A stretch of 64,000 nt of DNA, taken from the NCBI GenBank assembly GCA_944320495.1, contig CALUHR010000005.1, positions 160,001-224,000 on the forward strand, written 5' to 3'. A program made the translations under genes and the position numbers. Source of the DNA: Candidatus Methanomethylophilaceae archaeon (GTDB taxonomy: Archaea > Thermoplasmatota > Thermoplasmata > Methanomassiliicoccales > Methanomethylophilaceae). Positions 8,029 to 32,217 of this stretch are shown piece by piece. Numbering within the stretch: the first letter of the stretch is position 1; each line of letters begins with the position of its first letter. Under the pieces are notes generated by a model. That model searched no databases. It was given only the letters and a program-made list of their open reading frames with translations, and was not told the origin of the DNA.

Positions 8029-8094
8029 GATTGCACGCGGGGGGGGGGGTCCGCTGTCTTCGGCTGTCCTCCCCGTCCTCCGTTCGGAGGGAAA
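8029..8094 (+). promoter_or_regulatory. Poly-G (G11) leader with SD-sequestering hairpin, copy 1
   Basis: GATTGCACGC-G11(8039-8049)-TCCGCTGTCTTCGGCTGTCCTCCCCGT-CCTCC gttc GGAGG-gaaa-ATG; near-identical to 10874-10941. Confidence 0.75.
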
Positions 8095-10873: not shown

Positions 10874-10941
10874 GATTGCACGCGGGGGGGGGGGGTCCGC
10901 TGTCTTCGGCTGTCCTCCCCGTCCTCCGTTCGGAGGGATAA
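10874..10941 (+). promoter_or_regulatory. Poly-G (G12) leader, copy 2
   Basis: G12 at 10884-10895; otherwise identical to copy 1 through GGAGGGA. Confidence 0.75.
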
Positions 10942-14754: not shown

Positions 14755-14824
14755 ATGCACGCGGGGGGGGGGCGACCGATTCTGTCTTCCCTCCTCGTCC
14801 TCCGCATAAAAAGGAGGGAAACGA
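14755..14824 (+). promoter_or_regulatory. Poly-G (G10) leader, copy 3 (diverged)
   Basis: TGCACGC-G10(14763-14772)...TTCCCTCCTCGT-CCTCC gcataaaaa GGAGG-gaaacga-ATG; stem kept, loop changed. Confidence 0.7.
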
Positions 14825-16333
14825 ATGAACAGAGCAGCTTTTGCGGCCATTCTCATAGCCGCCATCACCGCCCTGTCCATGATGGTATCCATGCCATCGA
14901 TGGAGGCCGAGGTTACGGACACCTGGGACGGTACCGCCGACATATCATGGTATGACGGCATGAAAACCGAGTATCATATCGACACGGCGGAGAAGCTTGC
15001 CGGACTGGCACAGATCGTGAATGGGGATCCAGCCGAAGAGTTGGAAGGGATCACGGTATACCTCGATGCCGACCTAGACATATCCGGGCATGAATGGGAT
15101 GCCATCGGACAGGGGAACAACGCATCTGGATTCTTCGGAGGGATATTCGACGGACAGGGGCACGAGGTCAGGGGACTGACCCAGCACGAGGCTGAAAGCA
15201 TCGGCCTGTTCTCCGTTATAGGGATGAGCGGTGCCGTCAGGAACCTCGGCGTAACGGAAGCCGACATCGATTACACCGGGAATCGCCTGGATGCCGGCAT
15301 CCTCGCGTCGTGGGTCGACGGAGGGGTGATCGAGGATTGCTACTCGACTGGTTCGATGTACATCGGAATGAACATGCTGATCGGAGGCCTCATCGGCCAG
15401 TGCACCGCGGGTGCGAGAGTCATAGGATGCTACTCCTCTGCCGATGTGACCGTAAACACGCCTGGGGAGGATATGACGGTTGGCGGCGTCATCGGACAAT
15501 GGGAGAATTCCACCGATGCGTCCCTGATCAAGGACTGCTACTTCTCAGGAAGCATACATGAGATAGGAGCCGGAGGCGCCGCGGTGGGCGGGATACTGGG
15601 GGCCAACTTCGATTTCTCCGGTCAGCCCGGCGTAGACATCGAGGGATGCTTCGTGACCGCGACAGACCTCGTAAGTTCTAACATGGACAACATCCTCTGG
15701 ATCGGGGCGTTAGTGGACGGCAACGTCTCGAATTGCTACTGGCCATCGGAGCCGGAAGAGCGTATGACCGTCGTCAAGATGGTGGTGGACTGGGATGCAG
15801 GTACCGCATCGGCCGATCCGGATTTCGATCAGAGCACCTGCGGCAGTGCCGTCACCGACTTCTCGACGGACGAGTTCCTCCAGACCCTCAATGGCGGAGG
15901 GGACACATGGATCGCGGGTCCGGACGGACATCCCATCCATTCCTGGGACGCCGTCAACCACCCCGCGGACTACTCCGAGGTGGAGGAGGCAGTCGCCATC
16001 GCTGGAGGGATGGATAGCTCCGACTACTCGAACTGGGAAACCGTTCAGTCCGCCATCGACGCCGTCGACTATGGCCTCACGTTCGACAGGCAGGCGGAGG
16101 TCGACGCCATGGCCCAGGTAATCCTGGATTCGATTGACGGTCTGGAACACGCTCTGCCTCCATTCATACCGTTCCCGCCCGAGCAGGGAGGGGACCCCGT
16201 AGAGGTGTATCCCAGCCAGGACAGCGATTCATCCGATGAGGATGGATCCATGAAGGTAGTCGCAGTCGCGGCCGCCGCTGTGATTGCGGCGATTCTCGCA
16301 ATCGTGCTGGCGTCCACATATCGTCACGACTAA
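14825..16333 (+). CDS. Adhesin-like surface protein C (GLUG-like repeats plus FIVAR-like module)
   Basis: WDGTADISWY...TAEKLAGLA, GGLIGQ/GGVIGQ/GGILG repeats, ADYSEVEEAV...QAEVDAMA helical module, shared C-terminal motif. Confidence 0.8.
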   Translation: MNRAAFAAILIAAITALSMMVSMPSMEAEVTDTWDGTADISWYDGMKTEYHIDTAEKLAGLAQIVNGDPAEELEGITVYLDADLDISGHEWDAIGQGNNASGFFGGIFDGQGHEVRGLTQHEAESIGLFSVIGMSGAVRNLGVTEADIDYTGNRLDAGILASWVDGGVIEDCYSTGSMYIGMNMLIGGLIGQCTAGARVIGCYSSADVTVNTPGEDMTVGGVIGQWENSTDASLIKDCYFSGSIHEIGAGGAAVGGILGANFDFSGQPGVDIEGCFVTATDLVSSNMDNILWIGALVDGNVSNCYWPSEPEERMTVVKMVVDWDAGTASADPDFDQSTCGSAVTDFSTDEFLQTLNGGGDTWIAGPDGHPIHSWDAVNHPADYSEVEEAVAIAGGMDSSDYSNWETVQSAIDAVDYGLTFDRQAEVDAMAQVILDSIDGLEHALPPFIPFPPEQGGDPVEVYPSQDSDSSDEDGSMKVVAVAAAAVIAAILAIVLASTYRHD

Positions 16334-19407: not shown

Positions 19408-20997
19408 ATGTACAGATTCGAGAAAACTGCCAATCATCAGAAGATGTTGGCCGCAGCCCTCGTGGCGATGCTCGCCATCTGCTCCTTCGCGTGCGTATTC
19501 TCTGAGGAGAGCGACGCCGCCTACGACCAGAGCTTCGACATCAACATGAGGACTGGAGACGCGTTCTCCTACACGCCCGCGGTCAATCTCTCCGATGCCA
19601 CCATCGGTACACCCACTGGTTCCGCCATGTCCGCGGGACTCTCTTGGACCACTGGAACTCTCGGCGGATCCTTCGCGACCGCCACCGGTTCGAGTTCCGC
19701 CAACCAGGCCGTCATCACGGCCAACTGGACCAACGGATCCCTGTCCCAGACCGCCAAACAGACCATCAACTTCTACGTCTACGACCTCATCACCTTCAAC
19801 AACGGAACCTCCGGAAGCGAGTCCTACATCATAGAGGACATCACCGAGGACATGTCCGTGGCCACCATCAACGTCGCCAGCGGCCAGTATCCCGTAACCC
19901 CCACGATGACCCATACCATCGCCAAGGACGGGGGATCCGACAACGGACTGTTCACCTTCGACGACGTCTCGGGCGCCCTCACCGCCGCCAGGAACGCCAC
20001 CGCCGGTGACGAGGGAACCTACACCGTCACCGTCACCGCCACCTACTCCGGCGACGGCGGACACGCCAACGGAGGAACCGTCACAGACACCAAGCAGTTC
20101 GTCTACACCATCAACGTCGGAGCCGACTTCGCCCTCGACAGCGAGCCCGAGCAGGTCAACACCTTCGTCACCAACACCACCACCTCCCAGAACCAGTTCA
20201 CCATCACCACGAACTACCCCGATGAGACCTTCACCTACACCATCAAGGAGGTCACCAACGGAATGACCGCCCTCGTCAAGCAGGGTTCCGCCGGAAGCGA
20301 GAACGTCTTCACCATCGACACCTCCGCCGGTGCCAACCCCTGGGACGACGACAAGACCACCACCGTCAAGGAGTTCGACGTCACCGTCACCGTCGCCGGA
20401 ACCATCGGCGAGTACGGCGACTCCGAGGTCAGCGAGGACATCACCGTCCACGTGAAGATCTTCGCCGAGCTCGTGTTCATGGACGAGCCCAAGATCGCCG
20501 ACGTCCAGGCCCTCTCCGCCACCGGCAACGGCCTCGACGCCCTCGCCACCGCCAGCTTCTCCGGAGCCAAGTCCATCACCTACAACTGGGGAGACGGAAC
20601 CCAGACACACGTCGACGTGAAGAACACCTCCAACCCGACCTACTCCGCCAGGCATGTCTACGACTCCGCCGGCACCTACCTGGTGACCATCACCGCCGAG
20701 AACGATGTCGGAACCCAGAAGGCTTACATGCTCTACGACGCCACCAACGGCGCATGGGCCGCCGCCGACGAGACCACCGAGACCAGCGACGATGACAAGG
20801 GCTTCTTCGAGGAGCACGGATACCTCTTCATCCTCTTCGCGATCTTCGCCCTGCTGATGGTCGTCGTCTTCTTCGGAGTCGGCATCCAGCACCCCTTCGT
20901 CGCCATCGCCGCCATCGCCTTCGTGATCCTGGCGGTGCTCTGCTTCCTGTACGACGACTTCGGACTCCTCGACGGATTCCTGGACGGAGAGAGCTGA
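19408..20997 (+). CDS. Surface protein with Ig/cadherin-like and PKD domains and two C-terminal TM helices
   Basis: Signal peptide (SEESDAA), YNWGDGT...HVYDSAGTYLVTITAEN (PKD), strong NNC codon bias. Confidence 0.85.
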   Translation: MYRFEKTANHQKMLAAALVAMLAICSFACVFSEESDAAYDQSFDINMRTGDAFSYTPAVNLSDATIGTPTGSAMSAGLSWTTGTLGGSFATATGSSSANQAVITANWTNGSLSQTAKQTINFYVYDLITFNNGTSGSESYIIEDITEDMSVATINVASGQYPVTPTMTHTIAKDGGSDNGLFTFDDVSGALTAARNATAGDEGTYTVTVTATYSGDGGHANGGTVTDTKQFVYTINVGADFALDSEPEQVNTFVTNTTTSQNQFTITTNYPDETFTYTIKEVTNGMTALVKQGSAGSENVFTIDTSAGANPWDDDKTTTVKEFDVTVTVAGTIGEYGDSEVSEDITVHVKIFAELVFMDEPKIADVQALSATGNGLDALATASFSGAKSITYNWGDGTQTHVDVKNTSNPTYSARHVYDSAGTYLVTITAENDVGTQKAYMLYDATNGAWAAADETTETSDDDKGFFEEHGYLFILFAIFALLMVVVFFGVGIQHPFVAIAAIAFVILAVLCFLYDDFGLLDGFLDGES

Positions 20998-21095
20998 GGA
21001 GTGGGCATGGACGGGACAGCGGATGCGCGGACCGTCCGCGCGGATCTGTACGGGGGATCCTCCCCCCATCCCGGCCCCTTTCATGAGGTGACCCC

Positions 21096-22634
21096 ATGAA
21101 CTGGAAGATGGCATTCGCCGTCGTTCTGATCATAGCGGTCGCCGCAGGGGCCGCCGTCATGGGCCTCGACGCCGCCGACGACGGCGGCATCGAGGACACC
21201 TACGTTGACAACGAGGTGTTCCAGGTGCCCTATGCCGCGGACGGTTCCATGGGCTCCGTCGAGATGGAGGGCTATCTGTCCTGGGATGAGGTGACCTTCA
21301 CCGCCGTCCCCAGCCAGGGATACTCCTTCGACCGCTGGGCCTACGCGTCCGACGGCTCCACCTACTCCGAGAGCATCTCCTTCACCGTACCGATCGGGAG
21401 CGTCCCCGATGTGGTGGCGTACTTCGTCCCTCTCGAAGGGAACAAGGTCGTCACCCTCGAGTGGGACATGCCCGCCTTCGACGGCGACGACATCGAGGTT
21501 GTCGCGGTCACCCACGATTCGTTCTCCGTCGCCATAGACTCCGCCGAATGGTGGGAGTCCGTCTACGGCGACGGCGACACCCAGAGGCACGCGACCTCGG
21601 ATGTCCTGGTCCCCTCGGCCCTGGTGGTATGCGACGGCGTCGTCGACGCCATAGCGGACCACCTGGAGCCGATGATGGCGGGGCTCACGGACACCCAGAG
21701 GGCGATCGCTGTCATGTACTTCGTGCAGGACGCGATTGACTACCGCGAGGACATCTCGCTGTACGGCGAGAGCGAGTTCTGGGCCCTGCCGATGGAGACC
21801 GTGTACTCCCTGGAGGGGGACTGCGAGGACACCTCCACACTGTATGTGGCGATCGCATCCGTCCTCGGCCTCCAGGCGGGGTTCGTCTCCTTCGAGGACC
21901 CCTCCGCCGGCCACATGGGCGCGGCCGTCGCCATAGTCGACGGCGCGCCCGTGTCCGGCAACGGGGTCTTCGGGATCGACGGGACGACCTACGCCTTCGT
22001 GGAGACCACCTCCGACGGGTACAACTGCCCCCTCGGCTCCCTGGGCACCTACCAGGGAGGGGTGACCTTCGACATCGACGACGGCAAGTGGACCCCCCTC
22101 TTCTACGAGGAGGGGACATTCACCTCCGGTGCCACCGCGCCGATCGCCGGGTCCTCCGACCCGGCGACCCAGTACGGGGTGGTGTACGGCTCCTTCTCGG
22201 AGCCGCCCTCCATCCCCCTGGGCGTCGGCGACACGTTCCTCTACGTCCCGACAACCTCCCTCCCGAGCGAGATCGCCGCCTCCGGCGACGGCCTCGTCTC
22301 GGAGGGGGGATTCCTTATCTGGGATGCGGAGGCGAACGAGCTCTCCGGGACCGCAGTCGAAGAGGGCACCTACACGGTGACCCTCTCCGCCTCCTGGACC
22401 CACGGGGAGCTGGAGCAGACCGCCACCCAGACGATCGTGTTCACCGTCTCCTCCTCCGCCCCGGACTACTCCGGGGAGGACGTGGAGCTGGTGTACTCCG
22501 CGGCCACGGGCGAGTGGAACATCGTGACCACCGAGCCCGTCAGCCCCGAGAGGGACAACTCGGTCCTCTGGATGGCGGCCGGCGCGCTGGCCGTCATCGT
22601 GGCGGGACTCCTGATCTGGAGGACGGTAGCATGA
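21096..22634 (+). CDS. Membrane-anchored transglutaminase-like cysteine protease (BTLCP/LapG-like motif) with Ig domain
   Basis: DYREDISLYGESEFWALPMETVYSLEGDCED, GHM, YAFVETT (Cys-His-Glu); signal peptide; C-terminal TM. Confidence 0.75.
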   Translation: MNWKMAFAVVLIIAVAAGAAVMGLDAADDGGIEDTYVDNEVFQVPYAADGSMGSVEMEGYLSWDEVTFTAVPSQGYSFDRWAYASDGSTYSESISFTVPIGSVPDVVAYFVPLEGNKVVTLEWDMPAFDGDDIEVVAVTHDSFSVAIDSAEWWESVYGDGDTQRHATSDVLVPSALVVCDGVVDAIADHLEPMMAGLTDTQRAIAVMYFVQDAIDYREDISLYGESEFWALPMETVYSLEGDCEDTSTLYVAIASVLGLQAGFVSFEDPSAGHMGAAVAIVDGAPVSGNGVFGIDGTTYAFVETTSDGYNCPLGSLGTYQGGVTFDIDDGKWTPLFYEEGTFTSGATAPIAGSSDPATQYGVVYGSFSEPPSIPLGVGDTFLYVPTTSLPSEIAASGDGLVSEGGFLIWDAEANELSGTAVEEGTYTVTLSASWTHGELEQTATQTIVFTVSSSAPDYSGEDVELVYSAATGEWNIVTTEPVSPERDNSVLWMAAGALAVIVAGLLIWRTVA

Positions 22635-23941
22635 GCGCAGCCAGAAGGGCCATCGCCCTGATGGCCGTGATCGTGACCCTGACGGCCGCCTTCGCTGTTG
22701 TGGGAACCGTAGGGTTCGACGACAGCGAGGGGTCTGTCGAGATTGTCGACGGATTCAGAGCGGAATCCGAATCCGAGATGACCCAGATGGTCCTCGACGA
22801 GGACGGTACCGAACTCATCGAGATCACGGCTGTGATCCGCTCGGACGGCTGGGTGAAATTCACATACGGCCCCGTGCTCGAGGACAGCCGCAATTATCTG
22901 GCATACACGATCGGCTTCAAATTCGGCGATAACCCCCTCAGGGAGGGACACTCTGCGATGGAGGGCGTTAATCCCGCACTCATAGAGAACGCCGGACTCC
23001 AGCCGACCGGCGAGGGTTACGGATACGCCGAATTCTACATGGCGGAGGATGGGGTAAGTGCAGACACCCCCATCGGCCCCGTGACCAGGTTCGATTTCAC
23101 CTTCACCGCCCAGACAATCTACAACTACACCACAACGATAACATACGATGCCAACGCGACGGGAGATTACAACCTCCCTCCGACGACCTCCCGCGAGGAC
23201 AGTAGGACATCCGCGTCCACCATGAATGTGAGTCTCACCGCCTCCTCGACCGAGCTCACCCGCGACAGGTACGTCCACGTCGGATGGAACACCAAAGCCT
23301 CCGGCGACGGCGTCCACTGCGACCTCGGAGGGAGCATCGACGTGAGGATCGGCGATGACATAACCCTCTACGCCGAGTGGGAGATTGTCTCCCATACCGT
23401 GTCGCTGTACACGACCGACGACACCACGCCCTGGAAGCAGGTGTCGGTCCAGGACGGACAGGTACTGTCCGTCGGCGACCCGACCCCGCCCGAGGGACAG
23501 TTGTTCGCCGGATGGTACACCGACAACACCCGTTCCACCCCGTTCGACCCCACTACGGCGATCACGGCGGACGACGCCCTCTTCGCCAAGTTCGTGGACG
23601 AGCTGGAGTTCACCACCACGCCCACGGCCAAGGCCAACGTCACCTCCGTGGAATCCAGCGGCACGTTCGTGTTCGACTCCGGTGCATCCGCATCGGCCGC
23701 CAAGGTGCTCTGGGAGTTCCCCGACGGCACCACATCCACCGACAGGGTGACCACGCACTGGTTCGAACCTGGAACCCATACTGTCAAGCTGACCGTGTGG
23801 AACAGCAACGGCGAGATGTCCGAGACGGAGTTCGACGTCACCGTCACCGACGGTAACGACAATCTCCCGATCCTCTGGATCGCCGCGGGCATCCTCGCAG
23901 TCGCAGTCATCGGCATCGTGATCTGGAGGGTTGCGATATGA
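22631..23941 (+). CDS. Adhesin: two InlB B-type repeats, PKD, TM
   Basis: HVGWNT...TLYAEW, FAGWYTD...LFAKF, WEFPDGTTS...HWFEPGTHTVKLTV; ATGA overlaps at both ends. Confidence 0.85.
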   Translation: MSAARRAIALMAVIVTLTAAFAVVGTVGFDDSEGSVEIVDGFRAESESEMTQMVLDEDGTELIEITAVIRSDGWVKFTYGPVLEDSRNYLAYTIGFKFGDNPLREGHSAMEGVNPALIENAGLQPTGEGYGYAEFYMAEDGVSADTPIGPVTRFDFTFTAQTIYNYTTTITYDANATGDYNLPPTTSREDSRTSASTMNVSLTASSTELTRDRYVHVGWNTKASGDGVHCDLGGSIDVRIGDDITLYAEWEIVSHTVSLYTTDDTTPWKQVSVQDGQVLSVGDPTPPEGQLFAGWYTDNTRSTPFDPTTAITADDALFAKFVDELEFTTTPTAKANVTSVESSGTFVFDSGASASAAKVLWEFPDGTTSTDRVTTHWFEPGTHTVKLTVWNSNGEMSETEFDVTVTDGNDNLPILWIAAGILAVAVIGIVIWRVAI

Positions 23942-25323
23942 ACGCATCCAACCGCGCGGTCGCCATCCTGGCAATCGTCGTCACCCTTCTCTCGGCATCG
24001 TTCGTGGGAATCGTATTCTCCGACGATGCCGACGCCAGCAGCACTCCGACGGAGCTCATCCACATGGGCACTGCCTCGGACAACATCACATCCGACAACC
24101 CCGCCGTCATCGAATACGGCGGAGAACCCGCAGTGGAGGTCTACGTCAACAGCAACCTCTCCGACGGCGAATCCGCCGAATCCTGGGACAAGACCGTCTA
24201 CTTCCGCTTCGTTTCCGACGCGCTGAAGGGCTACAACATCTACATCTACGACACGTGGTACTTCACGGACGGTTCCTCGGACGAGTACAACGGGAACAAC
24301 GCTCTCAACAGGAGCAACGAGTACTGGAACACCAACGCGTGGTCCTCGCTCAGGCCCGTCAACCTGACGATGGACAGCGGGGTCAACCGCATCGTCATTC
24401 ACGCCTACATCAACGACCAGGACAGCGGCTACTCGGGGAAACCCGACAGGCTCTCCGGGACCAACGAGGTCACCTTCGACTTCACCCTGGGCAGGACTGA
24501 CGGGTACACCTACGTCACGAAGGTGTCCTACGACATCAACTACTCCGGGGGTTCCAACCCCAACGCGACCTCCACCGATCCCGTGTACCGGCCCTCCGCG
24601 TCCACGGAGAATGTGAAGGTCAAGATCGCGGGCGAGCAGACGAGGTCGGGTTACACCCACGTGGGATGGAACACCTCCTCGTCCGGGAACGGCACCCACT
24701 ACGACGTCGGAGCCACCATCGACGTGAGGATCGGCTCCGAGATCACCCTCTACGCAGAGTGGCAGATCGACAGCCACTCGATAGCACTGTACACGACTGA
24801 CGACTCCAACCCGTGGAAGACGGTATCCGTCCAGCACGGACAGCATCTCTCGATAGAGGATCCGACGGCCCCCGAAGGGAAGCTGTTCGCGGGCTGGTAC
24901 ACGGACAACACCAGGACGCAGCCCTACGACTATCCGAGCGTGACGGCGGACGATTCGCTGTATGCTTTGTTCGTCGACGAGCTGGCGTTCACCACCACGC
25001 CGACGGCGTCCCAGAACGTGACTCCCATCGAGCCCGAGGGGACGTTCATGTTCAGCTCGCTCGAATCCGAATCCGCTGCGAAGGTTCTCTGGGAGTTCCC
25101 CGACGGGACGACTTCTACCGACAGGGTGACGACCCATTGGTTCGAACCCGGTTCCTACAAGGTAAAGCTGACCGTCTGGAACAGTCTCGGAGAAGCATCC
25201 ACCACGGAGATTCAGGTCGAGGTCGGAGAGGAACCCGACGAGGATTCGAACGTCCTGATCTGGGTTACCGCTGGGATCGCGGTCGTGATCGTCGCCGTCG
25301 TCGTGGCGAGGAGGTTCATATGA
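23938..25323 (+). CDS. Adhesin: two InlB B-type repeats, PKD, TM
   Basis: Same stalk as the previous gene with a different head. Confidence 0.85.
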   Translation: MNASNRAVAILAIVVTLLSASFVGIVFSDDADASSTPTELIHMGTASDNITSDNPAVIEYGGEPAVEVYVNSNLSDGESAESWDKTVYFRFVSDALKGYNIYIYDTWYFTDGSSDEYNGNNALNRSNEYWNTNAWSSLRPVNLTMDSGVNRIVIHAYINDQDSGYSGKPDRLSGTNEVTFDFTLGRTDGYTYVTKVSYDINYSGGSNPNATSTDPVYRPSASTENVKVKIAGEQTRSGYTHVGWNTSSSGNGTHYDVGATIDVRIGSEITLYAEWQIDSHSIALYTTDDSNPWKTVSVQHGQHLSIEDPTAPEGKLFAGWYTDNTRTQPYDYPSVTADDSLYALFVDELAFTTTPTASQNVTPIEPEGTFMFSSLESESAAKVLWEFPDGTTSTDRVTTHWFEPGSYKVKLTVWNSLGEASTTEIQVEVGEEPDEDSNVLIWVTAGIAVVIVAVVVARRFI

Positions 25324-26645
25324 ACATGACTAAAACCCGCGACATCAGCGGGAGATCGGCCGCCATCGGCATCGTCGTGCTGATGGCGGTCGCCGCCCTG
25401 GCGATCGTGCCGATGTGCTCGGACGATTCCGAGGCCGTGACGGATCTCGGAGTTTACACCGGCGGAACCAATCTGAGCAGTAAGGACGCCGCATATTCTG
25501 GAATCGAGGTTGACATCTCCAGAATCAATGGGATGACACTCTTCGTCTCAATGGGCGCCCAAATCAAAGTGACATATGACAACTACGTCGACAAATATGA
25601 TGATAATTCGAATGGATTGGGAATGGGATGGAGCATCGGATCTGGCACAGTTTCCGAATACGGAAGTTGCAGATGGGAGGATGCAGCAATCAATTCCTTC
25701 AAACTCATCTGCCTCGATCCGAACAACATTACGAATCTGGGACCATACACTGGCGGAGAGAATCTGAGTTTTGAGAAAGCTGCATATTCTGGCGTAAACG
25801 CCAGTGTCACAGATGATGCTTTTCCAAACACTGGTGCGGGTCGTCCAAATGATATCTATGTGTTGCCTGGGGCCCATATACGCATTGTTGCAGAGGACAC
25901 GGGCCCTTCTTTCACATACTACCCGAATTGGTTCATCTCGTCTACCAATGGGAGAGGGTTGGAGGTGATTGATGGGACAGTCCCAGGCTACGGCGAATGG
26001 TTGGTGATGTGGGACGGTATCGTTCACATCGACATAGGGCTAGTGTGTCTGGGCCCCAGCCACACCGTAACCTTCAACTCGAACGGAGGTTCCGATGTCC
26101 CCAACCAGGTGACCGACTCCGACGGATACGTCATCGCCCCCGAGGACCCCGTCCTCGCGGGCCATGTGTTCGCGGGATGGTTCACCGACGACGGAGAGCC
26201 CTTCGACTTCTCCCAGCCCGTGACATCGGACATCACCCTCCACGCCCAATGGGTCGACGAGCTCGTGTTCACCACGACTCCCACATCCAACGGCACGGTC
26301 CAGTCCGTCCCGATGATGGAGGGCATGATCGTCTGCGACGCCACCCAATCTTCCGATTACACGTCCATCCTCTGGGACCTGGGGGACGGGACGTTCTCCA
26401 CCAACACATACGTCACCCACAGCTACGCCTCTCCGGGGCAGTACACGGTGACGCTCACGGTCTTCAACGAACATGGGAGTGATACCACGGAATTCACTGT
26501 GAACGTGCCCGAGGATGCCGGCAGGGGGGGGGGGGCAGTGACCTCTTGCCCTACGTTCTCGTCGCCATCCTGGCACTCGTATCGGGAGGTCTGGTCCTCA
26601 GACGTCTCCTGTGAACTGATGACAAATGAGGGGGTGTTCCAGTGA
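25320..26645 (+). CDS. Adhesin (DLGxY-repeat head, InlB B-repeat, PKD); anchor out of frame at G12 tract
   Basis: Alternate frame after 26535 encodes GSDLLPYVLVAILALVSGGLVLRRLL* (TGA 26612-26614). Confidence 0.8.
   Translation: MNMTKTRDISGRSAAIGIVVLMAVAALAIVPMCSDDSEAVTDLGVYTGGTNLSSKDAAYSGIEVDISRINGMTLFVSMGAQIKVTYDNYVDKYDDNSNGLGMGWSIGSGTVSEYGSCRWEDAAINSFKLICLDPNNITNLGPYTGGENLSFEKAAYSGVNASVTDDAFPNTGAGRPNDIYVLPGAHIRIVAEDTGPSFTYYPNWFISSTNGRGLEVIDGTVPGYGEWLVMWDGIVHIDIGLVCLGPSHTVTFNSNGGSDVPNQVTDSDGYVIAPEDPVLAGHVFAGWFTDDGEPFDFSQPVTSDITLHAQWVDELVFTTTPTSNGTVQSVPMMEGMIVCDATQSSDYTSILWDLGDGTFSTNTYVTHSYASPGQYTVTLTVFNEHGSDTTEFTVNVPEDAGRGGGAVTSCPTFSSPSWHSYREVWSSDVSCELMTNEGVFQ
26524..26535 (+). repeat. G12 tract before anchor (one G short of in-frame)
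   Basis: gca-G12-cagtgacctc; 10 or 13 G restores the anchor. Confidence 0.9.
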
Positions 26646-27964
26646 ACACCCTCTCGAACCTCAAAACCATAGCCGTGGCCGCAATCGCGATCGTCTCGGC
26701 GCTGATGTTCGTACCGATGATGTCGGACGATTCGGATGCGGTCACGGATCTCGGAGTTTACGCCCAAGAGGGGGAGAATGTCAGTTCTCCGACGGCGCTC
26801 TACTCCGGCATCAATGTATGGACAACCGTAGCATTCGTTGACAACAACGAGGTTTACTACGTCTCCCCCGGATCGGAGATCACTTTCGTCATGAACGACA
26901 TCGGGGGACTCACCATCGATTCGAAGGACAAACTCGGATTGAAGGAGGATTCGAGTGTTGGAATCTATGGCGGAATCAGCGGGACGATCACCGGCCAGGG
27001 GTATGTGGAGATCACAGCCGAGGGGGAGTTTTTCTCCAAGTTCTCGTTCTACGTCGCCTGCATCGACCCGAACGGCAGTTCCGATCTCGGAACATACGAT
27101 GGCGGACCCAACATGAGTTCGCCAGAGAAGACGTATTCCAAGATTGAAATACGTGGCTATACCGACTTTTGGAATTTGATCGACGGTTCGAATCTCGTCG
27201 TCTACGTCTCTGATGGGTCGGAGGTTTGGGTCCAGGGTGCCATAATGAGCACGAATCTGGAACGCAACGATCTGAATCTCTCCATTGCTGACATGGAGAT
27301 ATTGTATGGGACGGTCGAAGGCTATGGAACCACGATTTTCAGATCCGAGGCATCACTGTTCACGGTTGTGTGTATGGCCCCTACTCACACCGTCGTCTTT
27401 GACTCCGAAGGCGGTTCCAGTGTCCCCAATCAGGTAACCGACACAGACGGCATCGTCACCGCCCCCGAGGACCCCGTTCTCTCAGGATACATCTTCGGCG
27501 GCTGGTACACCGAGGACAACATCCCGTTCGACTTCTCCCAACCCATATCAGAGGACATAACGCTCCACGCCAAATGGATCGAGACACTCGTCTTCACCAC
27601 GGTTCCAACATCCAGCGGTACCGTCAAGGCCGTCCCGATGATGGCGGGAACCATCGTATGCGACGCATCCCAATCCAGCGACTACACGTCGATCCTCTGG
27701 GATCTCGGGGACGGGACCACATCCACCAACACGTATGTGACACACTACTACAGCCAGCCCGGGACCTATGAGGTAACCCTCACCGTCTTCAACGAACACG
27801 GAACGGATGTCACTACATACACTGTCGAGGTTCCCGAGAGCTCGACCGGGGGGGGGGGCATGACAACCTTCTCCTCTACATCGCAGTCGGACTGCTCGCA
27901 ACCATTCTCATCGCAGTCGTCGCATTGCGGTTGCTCTGACCACTCCATGGGGGCGGTCGCGTGA
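26642..27964 (+). CDS. Adhesin paralog; anchor out of frame at G11 tract
   Basis: Alternate frame encodes HDNLLLYIAVGLLATILIAVVALRLL* (TGA 27937-27939). Confidence 0.8.
   Translation: MNTLSNLKTIAVAAIAIVSALMFVPMMSDDSDAVTDLGVYAQEGENVSSPTALYSGINVWTTVAFVDNNEVYYVSPGSEITFVMNDIGGLTIDSKDKLGLKEDSSVGIYGGISGTITGQGYVEITAEGEFFSKFSFYVACIDPNGSSDLGTYDGGPNMSSPEKTYSKIEIRGYTDFWNLIDGSNLVVYVSDGSEVWVQGAIMSTNLERNDLNLSIADMEILYGTVEGYGTTIFRSEASLFTVVCMAPTHTVVFDSEGGSSVPNQVTDTDGIVTAPEDPVLSGYIFGGWYTEDNIPFDFSQPISEDITLHAKWIETLVFTTVPTSSGTVKAVPMMAGTIVCDASQSSDYTSILWDLGDGTTSTNTYVTHYYSQPGTYEVTLTVFNEHGTDVTTYTVEVPESSTGGGGMTTFSSTSQSDCSQPFSSQSSHCGCSDHSMGAVA
27848..27858 (+). repeat. G11 tract before anchor (one G short)
   Basis: acc-G11-catgacaac; 9 or 12 G restores the anchor. 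Confidence 0.9.
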
Positions 27965-29247
27965 CCGCCCCTGTAAACCTCAAGACGGCCTTCGTGACGA
28001 TTCTCGCTTTGGCATCCGCGATGGCGTTCGTCCCATTGATTGCGGACGATTCCGACGCGGTTACCGATCTCGGGACGTACGCTGGCGGGGAGAATCTCAG
28101 CACCCCAGACGCCGCCTATTCTGGGATAGTTATAAACAGCGTGGGAACAACGCTTCCCAGCAACAAGGTGTTCTACGTAACCATTGGTGCGGACGTGAGT
28201 CTGTCCCTTGGAGATGAGAATCAGAGTTTCGATTGTGAGAATAACGACCTCGGCCTGTACAATGACGACTTGTACGGCGGTGTCGATGGAACCGTCTCCG
28301 GGTACGGATGTGCGGAGATTTTTGCGGATTACAGTTACAGCAGATTCTACATCCTGATTGTCAGTCTCGATCCGAATGGAGTGACCGATCTGGGATCGTA
28401 CGACGGTTCGGTGAACGTCAGCAGCCCCACCGCCACATATTCTGGCATTACGAAGCACGGGGACTGGTTCGAGACGATTTACGTCTCGCTTGGTGCGGTC
28501 ATAGACGTCAGGGAGGAGAATGAACCGCTTGTTCTCTCCCTGTCGAACGATGACATGGGCATCTATGTCTGGACGGACAACAGCATCGACCAGCTCGGAG
28601 GCACGGTTTCAGCCTATGGTTCAACCGATGTGATGATCTCCTACTCTACGGGCGGTTACAGCTATACCATAACATGTCTAGAACCCATCAAAACATACAC
28701 CGTCATCTTTGATTCCAACGGCGGTTCCACAGTGGACAACTTCGTCACCGATGCCGACGGACTCGTCAAGGAACCCGACGACCCGGTCCTGGCGAACCAC
28801 ATCTTCGCAGGCTGGTACACGGACGATGGCGAACCCTTCGACTTCTCGCAGCCGATCTCCGAGGACATAACCCTCTATGCCCAGTGGGTGGACGAGCTCG
28901 TCTTCACCACCATTCCCACATCGGATGGCATCGTCAAGGCTGTTTCCAGTCTCGCAGGCACGATCCTCTGCGACGCCACGCTGTCCTCCGACTACACCTC
29001 CCTTCTCTGGGATCTCGGTGACGGAACGACATCGACCAACACCTACGTCACACACTACTATGGCGAACCGGGCCGGTACAAGGTGACTCTAACTGTTTTT
29101 AACGAACACGGGAGTGATACCACGGAATTCACAGTCAATGTGCCCGAAGAGTCCGTCGGGGGGGGGGGCAATGAACTCCTTCTCTACGCCGCAGTCGGAC
29201 TGCTGGCACTCGTCGCGGGAGGTCTGGTCGTTAGAAGGTTCCTCTGA
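27961..29247 (+). CDS. Adhesin paralog; anchor in frame
   Basis: Ends GGGGNELLLYAAVGLLALVAGGLVVRRFL*. Confidence 0.85.
   Translation: MTAPVNLKTAFVTILALASAMAFVPLIADDSDAVTDLGTYAGGENLSTPDAAYSGIVINSVGTTLPSNKVFYVTIGADVSLSLGDENQSFDCENNDLGLYNDDLYGGVDGTVSGYGCAEIFADYSYSRFYILIVSLDPNGVTDLGSYDGSVNVSSPTATYSGITKHGDWFETIYVSLGAVIDVREENEPLVLSLSNDDMGIYVWTDNSIDQLGGTVSAYGSTDVMISYSTGGYSYTITCLEPIKTYTVIFDSNGGSTVDNFVTDADGLVKEPDDPVLANHIFAGWYTDDGEPFDFSQPISEDITLYAQWVDELVFTTIPTSDGIVKAVSSLAGTILCDATLSSDYTSLLWDLGDGTTSTNTYVTHYYGEPGRYKVTLTVFNEHGSDTTEFTVNVPEESVGGGGNELLLYAAVGLLALVAGGLVVRRFL
29158..29168 (+). repeat. G11 tract before anchor (in frame)
   Basis: gtc-G11-caatgaactc. Confidence 0.9.
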
Positions 29248-29274
29248 TCTTGCTATGGCCGAGGGGGCGGTCGA

Positions 29275-30186
29275 ATGACCGCCTCTACAAACCTAAACAA
29301 GGGGATGTGCGGAATCGCCATCCTGGCTATCATCATTTCATCGTTGTCTGGGATGATTATGGTTTTCTCAGAAGATGGAGAAGCCGCTACGAGAGGTGGT
29401 TCTGGAACCCCCGAAGATCCATACTGGGGAACATTCGGTGGTCTGACAATTTATCTTCAGTGTAATCAGCACGATGGTGCCTATTTCCTCGTCGGCACCG
29501 TGTTCAGGTATGGTGAGCCATCTAGTGGTGAGGGATTCTATGACATATCTCCTGGATTTGGCCTAATCAGTGATGACTATACCATCGTAGGCACTGTGAC
29601 AAAGTCTGGGCAGTTCGATGCCCACCTCAAGAATCCAGCACAGGCCGATGAAATAACTCCAGCACACTTCACGATTTATTTCATAGACGAACCAGTCACA
29701 CCAACATATACAGTCGTCTTCAACTCCAACGGCGGATCGGACGTCCCCAACGCCACCACCGATGCCAGCGGCCTTGTCAAGGAACCCGACGATCCAGTCC
29801 TTGCGGATCACGTCTTCGCGGGCTGGTACACCAGCGACGGCGAGCCCTTTGACTTCTCCCAGCCCGTTACGGAGGACATAACCCTCCATGCACAGTGGGT
29901 CGACGAACTCGTGTTCACGACCATACCTACATCCGATGGCACCGTAAAGGCCGTGTCCGGCCTTGCAGGTACCATCCTCTGCGACGCAACCCTGTCCTCG
30001 GACTACACATCCCTTCTCTGGGACCTGGGCGACGGCACCTTCTCCGACAACACCTATGTCACGCACTACTACTCCGAACCCGGAACGTACACCGTGACCC
30101 TCACCGCGTACAATAACTACGGCACCGACGTCACGAAATTTACTGTCGAAGTGCCCGAGAATCTCGCTGGGGGGGGGGGGCAATGA
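29275..30186 (+). CDS. Adhesin paralog; truncated right after G12 tract
   Basis: Reads GGGGQ*; anchor frame encodes NDSILLWVPVILLAAILAAVVITRLL* (TGA 30260-30262). Confidence 0.8.
   Translation: MTASTNLNKGMCGIAILAIIISSLSGMIMVFSEDGEAATRGGSGTPEDPYWGTFGGLTIYLQCNQHDGAYFLVGTVFRYGEPSSGEGFYDISPGFGLISDDYTIVGTVTKSGQFDAHLKNPAQADEITPAHFTIYFIDEPVTPTYTVVFNSNGGSDVPNATTDASGLVKEPDDPVLADHVFAGWYTSDGEPFDFSQPVTEDITLHAQWVDELVFTTIPTSDGTVKAVSGLAGTILCDATLSSDYTSLLWDLGDGTFSDNTYVTHYYSEPGTYTVTLTAYNNYGTDVTKFTVEVPENLAGGGGQ
30169..30180 (+). repeat. G12 tract before anchor (one G extra)
   Basis: gct-G12-caatgacagc; 11 or 14 G restores the anchor. Confidence 0.9.
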
Positions 30187-30283
30187 CAGCATATTGCTGT
30201 GGGTCCCCGTCATCCTCCTGGCAGCCATCCTCGCCGCCGTGGTCATCACTCGGCTGCTCTGAACCCATTGCGGAGGTGGTCTG

Positions 30284-32155
30284 ATGGCCACCTCCGTCAA
30301 ACATCTCAGGGAATTCGCCGTCCTTGCGGTGGCGATTTGCTTGATTTCGATCATCTCCTTCGATGACGTGTCGGCGGATTCGGACGACTACTATCGCTAT
30401 GTCATTCATACCGATGGCACCATTGAGGGAAACTACACACCCATCGGAACATCATCGTCCACTGGCAGCTACACCAGCGTGAATGGTACGAACAGCGGGT
30501 CCTGGGCGTTCGACGAGGATGGATATGGCCCCTTCGGCTCGTTCTACGCGGCATTCGATCCTGCACAGGACAACAAGATGATTGGCCATCTGGATCCCGA
30601 TGACCTGACCAGGCTTGTCGATGGTACAAGCATTGCCGGACAACGGTACAATGTGATGTGGTGTCTCCCGACAGTGTACTGGCTCACGGATTCGAACGGG
30701 AATCTGATTCTCACCGACGACCCAGATGCTGGCGGAACTGCCTACGCGCACACCATAGATGGACACGTCTACGGCTACATCGGGATAGGAGTTTATGAGG
30801 CTAGCACTTGGACTGTCAATGGTAAGGCAATCTTAACATCATTCACAGAGATGGACCCAAGAACAGCTACAACACCAATCATCATGCGCGGTTGGGCAAA
30901 CAATCAACTTGTCAACACCTCTAATGACGAAACAAACGGTTGCGCCATGTTATGGAACTTCTACCAGTGGCAGTTGTATCGTTTCTGCGCTGTATCGGTT
31001 ATGGGATCTTGGAATTCCCAATCGGTTGCTGGGACTGGTAGTTTCAATTACAATAGATTCGATGGATATGCGGAAACCACGGGACAACTCGACAGCTCTG
31101 GACCTTACGCTGGAGACAAAACAACTGGCTCTGCAGGATATTGTACCCCCGTCAAGGTTTTCATCGAAAACGCATGGGGATCCACCGAAGAGTATGTTGA
31201 CGGCGTGGTAATTGATTCGCTCGAATACTATATCGATCAATCCGCGGTACCAACAGGAACAACGTCTGGAACATACATAACCAATCCGAATGGAAAACTA
31301 CCTCTGGGTTTAACTGGAGTGTATGCAGGCAGCCCCTCAACCGAAACCCAGATATGGGGTATGCCGACATCGATGGCGTCGACGCCTTTGCTATATGACG
31401 CGGCCATAACCACAAATGATACGGGAACACGCATCATGCTGGTTGGAGGCGCCCCCACAACTACGGATTCAATAATATCTGTCGCACAGTTCGGAGGCAT
31501 TTCGGCTATTAATTGCTCATACGTCGGGACATCCAGCATATATGTGGGGTCCCGTCTCGCCTTCGTCTTCGACGACGACCCATTCCAGCCCCAGACACAC
31601 ACCGTAACCTTCTCCACCGGTTCCTCCACCACCATCCCCTCCCAGATCATCGAATCCGGCCAGACCGCCCTCACACCCTCCAACCCCACCCTCGAAGGCT
31701 ACGTCTTCGACTGCTGGAGCACTTCCCCGACATCCCGCGTCCCCTACGACTTCAACACCCCCGTGACGCAGGACATCACCCTCTACGCCTTCTGGGTCGA
31801 GACCCTCGTCTTCACCACCACGCCCACCTCGCAGGGAACCGTCTCCGCCGTCCCGCGGATGGCCGGCACGATCCTCTGCGACGCGACGGGTTCCAGGGAT
31901 TACACGTCCCTGCTCTGGGACCTCGGCGACGGGACGCTCTCGACCGACAACTACGTCACCCACTACTACTCCGATCCGGGGACCTACACGGTCACGCTGA
32001 CCACGTACAACTCCCAGGGTGCGGACGTCACCACCTTCACCGTCGAGGTGCCAGAGGCACCCGGCGGGGAGGGCGACGGCGATCTCTTGCTCTGGGTCGC
32101 CATCGGGCTGTTGGTTTTACTGATAGTCGTCGTGGTGCTAGCGAGGATTCTATGA
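30284..32155 (+). CDS. Adhesin with phage tail-fibre/CLec-like head, InlB B-repeat, PKD, TM
   Basis: IENAWGSTEEYVDG and VGG...VGSRLAF motifs; linker codons are interrupted (GGC GGG GAG GGC GAC GGC), so no G tract. Confidence 0.8.
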   Translation: MATSVKHLREFAVLAVAICLISIISFDDVSADSDDYYRYVIHTDGTIEGNYTPIGTSSSTGSYTSVNGTNSGSWAFDEDGYGPFGSFYAAFDPAQDNKMIGHLDPDDLTRLVDGTSIAGQRYNVMWCLPTVYWLTDSNGNLILTDDPDAGGTAYAHTIDGHVYGYIGIGVYEASTWTVNGKAILTSFTEMDPRTATTPIIMRGWANNQLVNTSNDETNGCAMLWNFYQWQLYRFCAVSVMGSWNSQSVAGTGSFNYNRFDGYAETTGQLDSSGPYAGDKTTGSAGYCTPVKVFIENAWGSTEEYVDGVVIDSLEYYIDQSAVPTGTTSGTYITNPNGKLPLGLTGVYAGSPSTETQIWGMPTSMASTPLLYDAAITTNDTGTRIMLVGGAPTTTDSIISVAQFGGISAINCSYVGTSSIYVGSRLAFVFDDDPFQPQTHTVTFSTGSSTTIPSQIIESGQTALTPSNPTLEGYVFDCWSTSPTSRVPYDFNTPVTQDITLYAFWVETLVFTTTPTSQGTVSAVPRMAGTILCDATGSRDYTSLLWDLGDGTLSTDNYVTHYYSDPGTYTVTLTTYNSQGADVTTFTVEVPEAPGGEGDGDLLLWVAIGLLVLLIVVVVLARIL

Positions 32156-32159
32156 GAAC

Positions 32160-32189
32160 CCCGGGGGCGGGCGGATGCCCGCCCCCGGG
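32160..32189. terminator. Perfect 13-bp hairpin ending the adhesin operon
   Basis: CCCGGGGGCGGGC ggat GCCCGCCCCCGGG, 4 nt after the stop. Confidence 0.7.
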
Positions 32190-32217
32190 AAACCCTTTGA
32201 CCGTTCGTTCTCGGATG

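Follow-up and report, generated by a model that had tools for sequence, protein, structure and literature searches.

The stretch of DNA analysed here, which we call the window (64,000 nucleotides (nt), positions 160001-224000 of contig C5 in the 1.77 Mb, 61.6% GC draft genome G000 of a Candidatus Methanomethylophilaceae archaeon), carries an array of genes for adhesin-like surface proteins. Four consecutive members of this array (g1-g4) contain a run of 11 or 12 G between a PKD domain and the C-terminal anchor, and each of the three reading frames behind the run has a specific ending that is conserved among relatives: the anchor itself, an immediate stop codon, or a hydrophilic tail whose stop overlaps the start codon of the following gene, in a region predicted to fold into a hairpin. 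We lean towards reading this arrangement as a switch, operated by slippage of the G run, that would toggle the anchoring of each protein and, through frame-dependent coupling, the translation of the gene behind it.

Reading frames behind the G tracts

All features described below lie on the forward (+) strand and coordinates are those of the window. The tracts are G12 in g1 (26524-26535), G11 in g2 (27848-27858), G11 in g3 (29158-29168) and G12 in g4 (30169-30180). As assembled, g1 (25320-26645), an adhesin-like gene with a signal peptide, a variable head and Flg_new and PKD domains, and its paralogue g2 (26642-27964) are read in the tail frame and end at the GTGA on the starts of g2 and g3, respectively. 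The paralogue g3 (27961-29247) is in the anchored (ON) frame, and g4 (29275-30186), a paralogue whose head is shorter, terminates at the instant TGA, so that all three states are found side by side in a single assembly. The anchored frame requires 13 or 10 G in g1, 12 or 9 in g2 and 11 in g4. In what follows, the anchored frame is frame 0, the tail frame +1 and the instant-stop frame +2.

The instant-stop frame meets a TGA beginning at 26539, 27861, 29172 and 30184, at most one codon past the tract, and these stops are formed by AGT, CAT, AAT and AAT followed by GAC, GAC, GAA and GAC. Every one of them belongs to a GTGA (26538-26541 in g1) or an ATGA (27860-27863, 29171-29174 and 30183-30186 in g2, g3 and g4) whose start codon opens the tail frame. 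An earlier reading of the same letters by a model (the original prediction) had located these four stops in one frame and attributed them to T-ending codons within a region that otherwise favours C; our three-frame translation agrees with all of its coordinates, and its remark on codon bias also holds, with a T-ending share of 23% among two-fold pyrimidine-ending codons over the final 160 codons of g1-g4. The anchor frame consists of 25-26 hydrophobic codons that end in R-R, L-R or T-R plus two residues (in g1, 25 codons and a TGA, 26537-26614), and its stops at 26612, 27937, 29245 and 30260 fall 27, 21, 27 and 21 nt ahead of the next start. The tail frame is open for 35, 34, 35 and 33 codons in g1-g4. 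Its stops at 26643, 27962 and 29276 (the last, 29276-29278, overlapping the ATG of g4) give GTGA, GTGA and ATGA on the next start, and the stop at 30282-30284 forms TGATG with the start of g5. The openness of this frame through the anchor, the overlap of its stop with the next start and the 21 or 27 nt that separate the anchored stop from that start had all been predicted and are confirmed, as is the direct ATGA coupling of the tract-less genes upstream (overlaps at 22631, 23938 and 25320). A conserved functional domain in the tail peptide was considered as well and ruled out; the conserved stretch mirrors the anchor codons of the other frame.

We compared these junctions with orthologous arrays from metagenome assemblies (L021, GCA_964306345.1; L022-L027; L029; L109; L110). 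The comparison covers 15 tract-bearing junctions, the four of the window included, from nine lineages that share 52-80% nucleotide identity between the tract and the next start; the two junctions of L110 were seen afterwards and stand outside the 15. Every one of the 15 has the instant stop, an anchor of 25-26 codons and a 33-37-codon tail whose stop falls on the next start, be it ATG, GTG or TTG, and the spacer between the anchored stop and that start is always 21, 27 or 30 nt, a multiple of three. The stop/start overlap, either NTGA (4 nt) or TGATG (1 nt), belongs to the tail frame only (15/15). The two junctions of L110 have the same layout. At the g4-g5 junction, the window has TGATG and L021 has GTGA, two solutions with the same outcome. 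The instant stop takes its T from AGT, CAT or AAT at the 15 junctions, from GAT in L110 and from TAT in L028, a locus with only 7 G; the codon therefore encodes five different amino acids and yet is T-ending throughout, with a purine before the T, against the 23% T-ending usage elsewhere. Relatives that keep the tract thus keep the pattern, the outcome that the original prediction had sought in diverged orthologues.

In L028 itself (2307-2470 of that locus), where only 7 G are left of the decayed tract, ACG (as ACGA) stands at the start position of the next gene and the tail frame continues, reaching 50 codons, a hint that loss of the tract may be followed by loss of the layout. If CGA were read as a stop there, the tail would nonetheless end at the same position. 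Searches of the GTDB species representatives for the genus and order recovered nothing closer than distant PKD/Flg_new matches (at most 37% identity), a contig scan with g3 as query confirmed no relative, and the motif of nine G, 1-3 nt and RTGA was rare in the species representatives outside G000. A metagenome scan returned 80 loci, mostly generic PKD proteins; four (L028-L031) were family-like, with a G run in L028 and L029 only.

How often such a layout would arise by chance was estimated by recoding the anchors synonymously with the codon usage of the genome. The tail frame stayed free of stops across the anchor with P 0.19-0.64 (mean 0.37), and a stop appeared within two codons of the instant-stop frame with P 0.09-0.45 (mean 0.19). 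With the further terms (an open spacer, P 0.68; the right phase, 1/3; A as the fourth base, found at 0.70 of the family starts) the whole pattern is expected at about 1% per junction, so that the shuffling put forward together with the original prediction does not make it common by chance. The "4 of 4" of that prediction, on the other hand, refers to paralogues and does not represent four independent trials, and for this reason we have relied more on natural controls. Among 51 tract-less C-terminal anchors of the same genome, the +1 frame is open in 8 (16%, equal to the recoding expectation) and closed in 43, while +2 is open in 90%. A second set, 15 tract-less anchors from the same arrays and from relatives, has +1 open in a single case and closed in 14, with +2 mostly open for more than 100 codons. 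The 15 tract-bearing junctions are the reverse: in 15/15, +1 runs open as far as a stop that overlaps the next start, and +2 is closed within two codons. Counted by lineage, the figures are 9/9 for tract-bearing against 1/10 for tract-less cases. Judged from these comparisons of sequence, the three-frame layout is not a product of chance, and selection has likely acted on both out-of-frame layouts.

Hairpins at the starts of the following genes

The 51 nt around each start that follows a tract-bearing gene fold into a stem of 10-13 base pairs (bp). The 5' arm includes the G-rich Shine-Dalgarno sequence, the 3' arm consists of codons 2-5 of the following gene, and the first two bases of the start codon occupy a loop of 4-7 nt, with its G closing the stem. 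In the window, the g1-g2 hairpin (26627-26656) has 13 bp; its 5' arm contains the Shine-Dalgarno, the GTG of g2 takes up the loop and the closing pair, and the 3' arm is made of codons 2-5 of g2. Those at g2-g3 (12 bp, 27947-27974) and g3-g4 (10 bp, 29263-29286) cover the Shine-Dalgarno and the GTG of g3 or the ATG of g4, and at g4-g5 (30268-30300) GGAGGTGG pairs with CCACCTCC over the Shine-Dalgarno and the ATG of g5.

In an alignment of 14 sequences, 88% of the cells are paired, compared with 47-59% when the partner is slid, and in five pairs both partners have changed (GGGGG versus GGAGG, for instance, goes with C versus T in the opposite arm). The covariation score was 0.342 against 0.223, and none of 500 shuffles scored as high. 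The mean minimum free energy was -19.8 kcal/mol for the 15 tract junctions and -12.0 kcal/mol for 27 other starts of the same loci (p = 2e-6, for junctions that are not independent). A hairpin of this kind is found at every tract junction and at no other start in these loci; junctions coupled directly by ATGA, such as that between the tract-less paralogue g0 (23938-25323) and g1, have no such structure. Stems of 10-13 bp, covariation and specificity to the tract junctions are together what would be expected of a sequestered initiation region. The anchored frame stops 7-17 nt ahead of the stem, and the tail frame is the only one that crosses the 5' arm and ends in the loop.

Two further observations concern the same region. 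Of the 15 starts that follow tract-bearing genes, 7 are GTG or TTG, compared with 4 of 27 other starts in the same loci, an excess that would fit a reliance on reinitiation. Directly after the stop of g5 (30284-32155), a tract-less paralogue whose anchor has a closed +1 frame, there is a perfect 15-bp GC hairpin (32160-32190, -39.9 kcal/mol, z -4.5) whose loop contains an ATG. L021 and L022 conserve this hairpin behind their own g5 orthologues, and it resembles either a junction hairpin without a next gene or the end of an operon.

Termination-reinitiation at 4-nt and 1-nt overlaps has been shown in an archaeon and in Escherichia coli (PMC6728339), and the same group found that it is almost lost in an archaeon once stop and start are about 20 nt apart (PMC10666635). 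Since only the tail frame passes through the hairpin and overlaps the next start, and the anchored frame stops 21-30 nt upstream, we infer that the state of the tract sets both anchoring and translation of the next gene. Slipped-strand mispairing at replication would alter the run by one G and shift ribosomes among the three shaped frames. In frame 0, they would make the anchored surface protein and stop too far from the next start for reinitiation and short of the hairpin. In frame +1 they would make an ectodomain without anchor, carrying the hydrophilic tail of 33-37 residues, and on their way melt the hairpin over the next Shine-Dalgarno and start, terminate on NTGA or TGATG and reinitiate. 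In frame +2 the immediate stop would leave a clean anchor-less ectodomain. The start codon within the ATGA or GTGA of this last frame lies behind a G-rich, Shine-Dalgarno-like run, and ribosomes may relay from there, via the tail frame, to the next gene; the statistics for such a relay are weak and we put it forward tentatively. Each tract would in this way decide between a cell-bound and a released form of its own protein and set the supply of ribosomes to the next gene. The original prediction had already suggested a possible tuning of downstream translation, and the covarying hairpin over Shine-Dalgarno and start supports such an effect, in keeping with the archaeal spacing results (PMC10666635). 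Of the two parts of the model, phase-variable anchoring is in our opinion very likely; for the gating of the next gene by frame, the odds appear even.

Tract length and competing explanations

The tract lengths differ between samples. Three samples of one species with identical flanks (L023, L024 and L025) have 13, 13 and 12 G at one junction and 10, 11 and 11 G at the next, and the state changes accordingly. For g1, the tract is G12 in the window (tail), G10 in L109 (anchored) and G11-A-GG in L021 (instant stop); for g4, it is G12 in the window (instant stop), G11 in L021 (anchored) and G11 in L110 (tail). The database proteins of the family include about 11 with anchored, 7 with tail and 3 with instant-stop endings. 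Such differences support phase variation at the DNA level and, with it, the three-state switch of the original prediction.

At the scale of the genome, the lengths of G/C runs are bimodal: there are 365 runs of length 6, followed by 9, 4 and 1 of lengths 7, 8 and 9, and then 4, 9, 6 and 1 of lengths 10, 11, 12 and 13. Most of the 21 runs of at least 9 nt are located inside, or 43-56 nt upstream of, genes for proteins with signal peptides. Among the marks of contingency loci are a homopolymer able to slip (around 8 or more G/C) within the gene, a repeat length that differs between close strains with conserved flanks, and an excess of long repeats concentrated in surface genes. All of this is found here, with G11-G12 inside four genes, and the bimodal run lengths together with the location in surface genes are, as read from one draft genome, the signature of such loci.

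A simpler possibility is that the tracts do nothing but vary anchoring, so that the protein is either bound or released. The hairpin would then be a constant attenuator or an mRNA-stability element, the next gene would be translated independently of the tract, and the open tail and the quick stop would be kept merely to avoid harmful or wasteful peptides. Both the tract polymorphism and the three defined products that we see are accommodated by this simpler scheme, differential translation of the downstream gene is itself deduced from sequence, and the similarly strong hairpin behind g5, with no gene following, indicates that such hairpins may serve otherwise. The simpler scheme leaves unexplained, however, that the tail runs exactly to the next start at all 15 junctions by two different solutions (NTGA and TGATG), that the spacers are multiples of three and that the hairpin is restricted to sites after tract-bearing genes. 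We regard it as possible but doubtful.

The three forms could also be produced from RNA, by polymerase stutter or ribosome slippage, in a set ratio, the differences in DNA length being then secondary. A long homopolymer with defined ends in all three frames is what such recoding would use, and viral editing sites, where a slippery run is known to give access to three frames, provide a precedent. The DNA tract lengths, nevertheless, do differ between samples and set the frame that is called, and no frameshift-stimulating structure was found in the 65 nt after each tract, whose folding is no more stable than that of shuffled sequences (z -1.2 to +0.35). The slippery run is therefore not accompanied by the nearby hairpin or pseudoknot typical of a programmed ribosomal frameshift, and because of this we rank recoding at the RNA level below DNA slippage and consider it improbable, although both are compatible and not mutually exclusive.

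That the layout has no function, having arisen once by chance in the ancestor of the paralogues and persisted by descent, gene conversion and GC-rich codon bias, with homopolymer errors creating the differences in frame, would suit the homology of the junctions, the modest chance values per junction and the error-prone nature of homopolymers, but is very hard to reconcile with nine lineages that differ by 20-48% without a single loss, the compensatory changes in the hairpin, five different codons that all retain the T, tract-less relatives with the same codon bias and the opposite frame layout, and the strong over-representation of long G/C runs.

Several points weigh against the slippage switch with coupling that we favour. 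The probabilities obtained by recoding are individually unremarkable at each junction (0.19-0.64 for the open tail, 0.09-0.45 for the quick stop), an A in the fourth position is frequent anyway at the starts of this adhesin family (70%), and the purine before the instant TGA, which creates the ATG or GTG, is only weakly significant. All the junctions derive from one ancestor, so their counts are not independent. An assembly consensus at G10-13 may err by one base. The base of the hairpin may be opened by a ribosome that terminates 21 nt upstream, so that the next gene would not have to be silent in the anchored state. Finally, the GTDB species representatives searched contain no close orthologues, and the system is therefore narrowly distributed.

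A more far-reaching version of the slippage switch, which seems to us unlikely although worth stating, is that the array is a translational relay displaying one paralogue at a time. Both out-of-frame states would hand ribosomes on, the tail directly and the instant stop via reinitiation and the tail-frame bridge. The first gene in the anchored frame would be displayed and would shut off those behind it, the upstream genes being shed as soluble proteins; in the window, g1 and g2 would be shed, g3 displayed, and g4 and g5 silent. If true, this would be mutually exclusive expression of surface antigens, purely translational and driven by slippage, in an archaeon.

The array and its relation to known systems

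The McrA encoded in the genome is 96% identical to those of the Methanomassiliicoccales strains Mx-03 and DOK, and the organism is therefore a gut-type methyl-reducing methanogen. The head-to-tail array of surface-protein genes spans 19408-32155 and comprises at least seven adhesin-like protein genes, which may form one translationally linked unit. Each of the six that were scanned (g0-g5) combines a signal peptide and a variable head with single Flg_new (Listeria-Bacteroides repeat) and PKD domains, and has a hydrophobic anchor at the C-terminus. Flg_new (PF09479) and PKD gave Pfam matches above the cut-off in 6/6, and the anchors were read off the translation. By their domain content, the six products fit the feature set of the Flg_new/PKD adhesin-like proteins of gut Methanomassiliicoccales. 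In the related M. alvi, Flg_new adhesin-like proteins are membrane-bound, and there is neither a wall nor an S-layer (PMC10673518); the anchor would therefore be what keeps the adhesins on the cell. Not one in-frame CGA occurs in the roughly 2600 codons of g0-g5 (23938-32155), where the five other arginine codons are used, and at 14 junctions both the anchor frame and the tail frame are free of CGA and TAG, so that the frame analysis does not depend on whether CGA acts as a stop or TAG as a sense codon.

Outside g1-g4, three more of the long runs fall within long open frames (C3:84105, C13:38064 and C1:52693), and seven are placed 43-56 nt ahead of a gene, which in five cases encodes a signal-peptide-like N-terminus. 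The window holds a second class of tracts, G10-G12, at 8039-8049, 10884-10895 and 14763-14772, and L023 has them at 15677-15687 and 19613-19623 of its own locus. They precede the starts of large signal-peptide surface proteins by 45-52 nt and are followed by a C/U-rich block and a hairpin, CCUCC-loop-GGAGG, over the Shine-Dalgarno. In predicted folds of the leader, a tract of 11 G keeps the Shine-Dalgarno paired, and one of 12 G pairs through to CCUCC, freeing it.

In bacterial pathogens and commensals, phase variation driven by repeats is textbook knowledge; in archaea it has, to our knowledge, barely been documented. A centenary review of 2025 lists archaeal phylogenies just as a future expansion (PMC11868660). 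In the literature searched we found no poly-G switching in Methanomassiliicoccales and no tract at an anchor junction coupled to a neighbouring gene, which is not proof of absence. The gut methanogen studied here has about 21 long G/C runs, and at four of them all three frames behind the run are conserved in a specific form, which implies that the "off" states are used and not merely tolerated. If the coupling is real, a single G would decide whether an adhesin is retained on a wall-less cell or shed, and whether the next adhesin gene is translated, a compact combinatorial route to surface variation in the gut. Annotation pipelines will call such genes frameshifted, truncated or fused at random.

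A formal parallel to the three frames comes from the RNA viruses. In the editing of the filovirus GP and of the paramyxovirus P/V/W genes, a homopolymer opens three frames with defined C-termini, including secreted and membrane-anchored forms of a glycoprotein. Viral editing results from polymerase stuttering on RNA at a fixed ratio, whereas here the length of the DNA run itself differs between populations. A secreted, anchor-less form is also known for the InlA protein of Listeria monocytogenes. Its gene, inlA, shares with g1-g4 an adhesin with related repeat domains that loses its function or its anchoring by a homopolymer frameshift (Orsi et al., PMC2831843), but the inlA tract studied lies at the 5' end, where it leads to loss of the protein, and there is neither a three-frame layout nor coupling to a neighbour.

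With the poly-G/C contingency loci of Campylobacter jejuni, Neisseria and Helicobacter (PMC8355987, PMC11868660), the array has in common runs of 9-13 G inside surface-protein genes, run lengths that are polymorphic between close strains, an excess of long runs in a small host-associated genome, and many loci affected together. It differs from them in its archaeal host and in the position of the run at the 3' end, where the whole ectodomain is made and the anchor alone would be toggled, as well as in out-of-frame readings that both have conserved, specific ends and are wired to the start of the next gene. With coupling by termination-reinitiation at sequestered starts (Huber et al., PMC6728339, PMC10666635; reviewed in PMC12548453), it shares the 4-nt or 1-nt overlap, a Shine-Dalgarno just upstream and a stable structure over the initiation region, here a predicted one, that only ribosomes translating through it could open. 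Unlike in classical coupling, the overlap exists in one of three frames, a hypermutable run about 100 nt upstream would select that frame, and the anchored frame ends 21-30 nt short of the start. The locus would thus work like the bacterial poly-G contingency loci combined with classical translational coupling, and the testable features of both are present in it.

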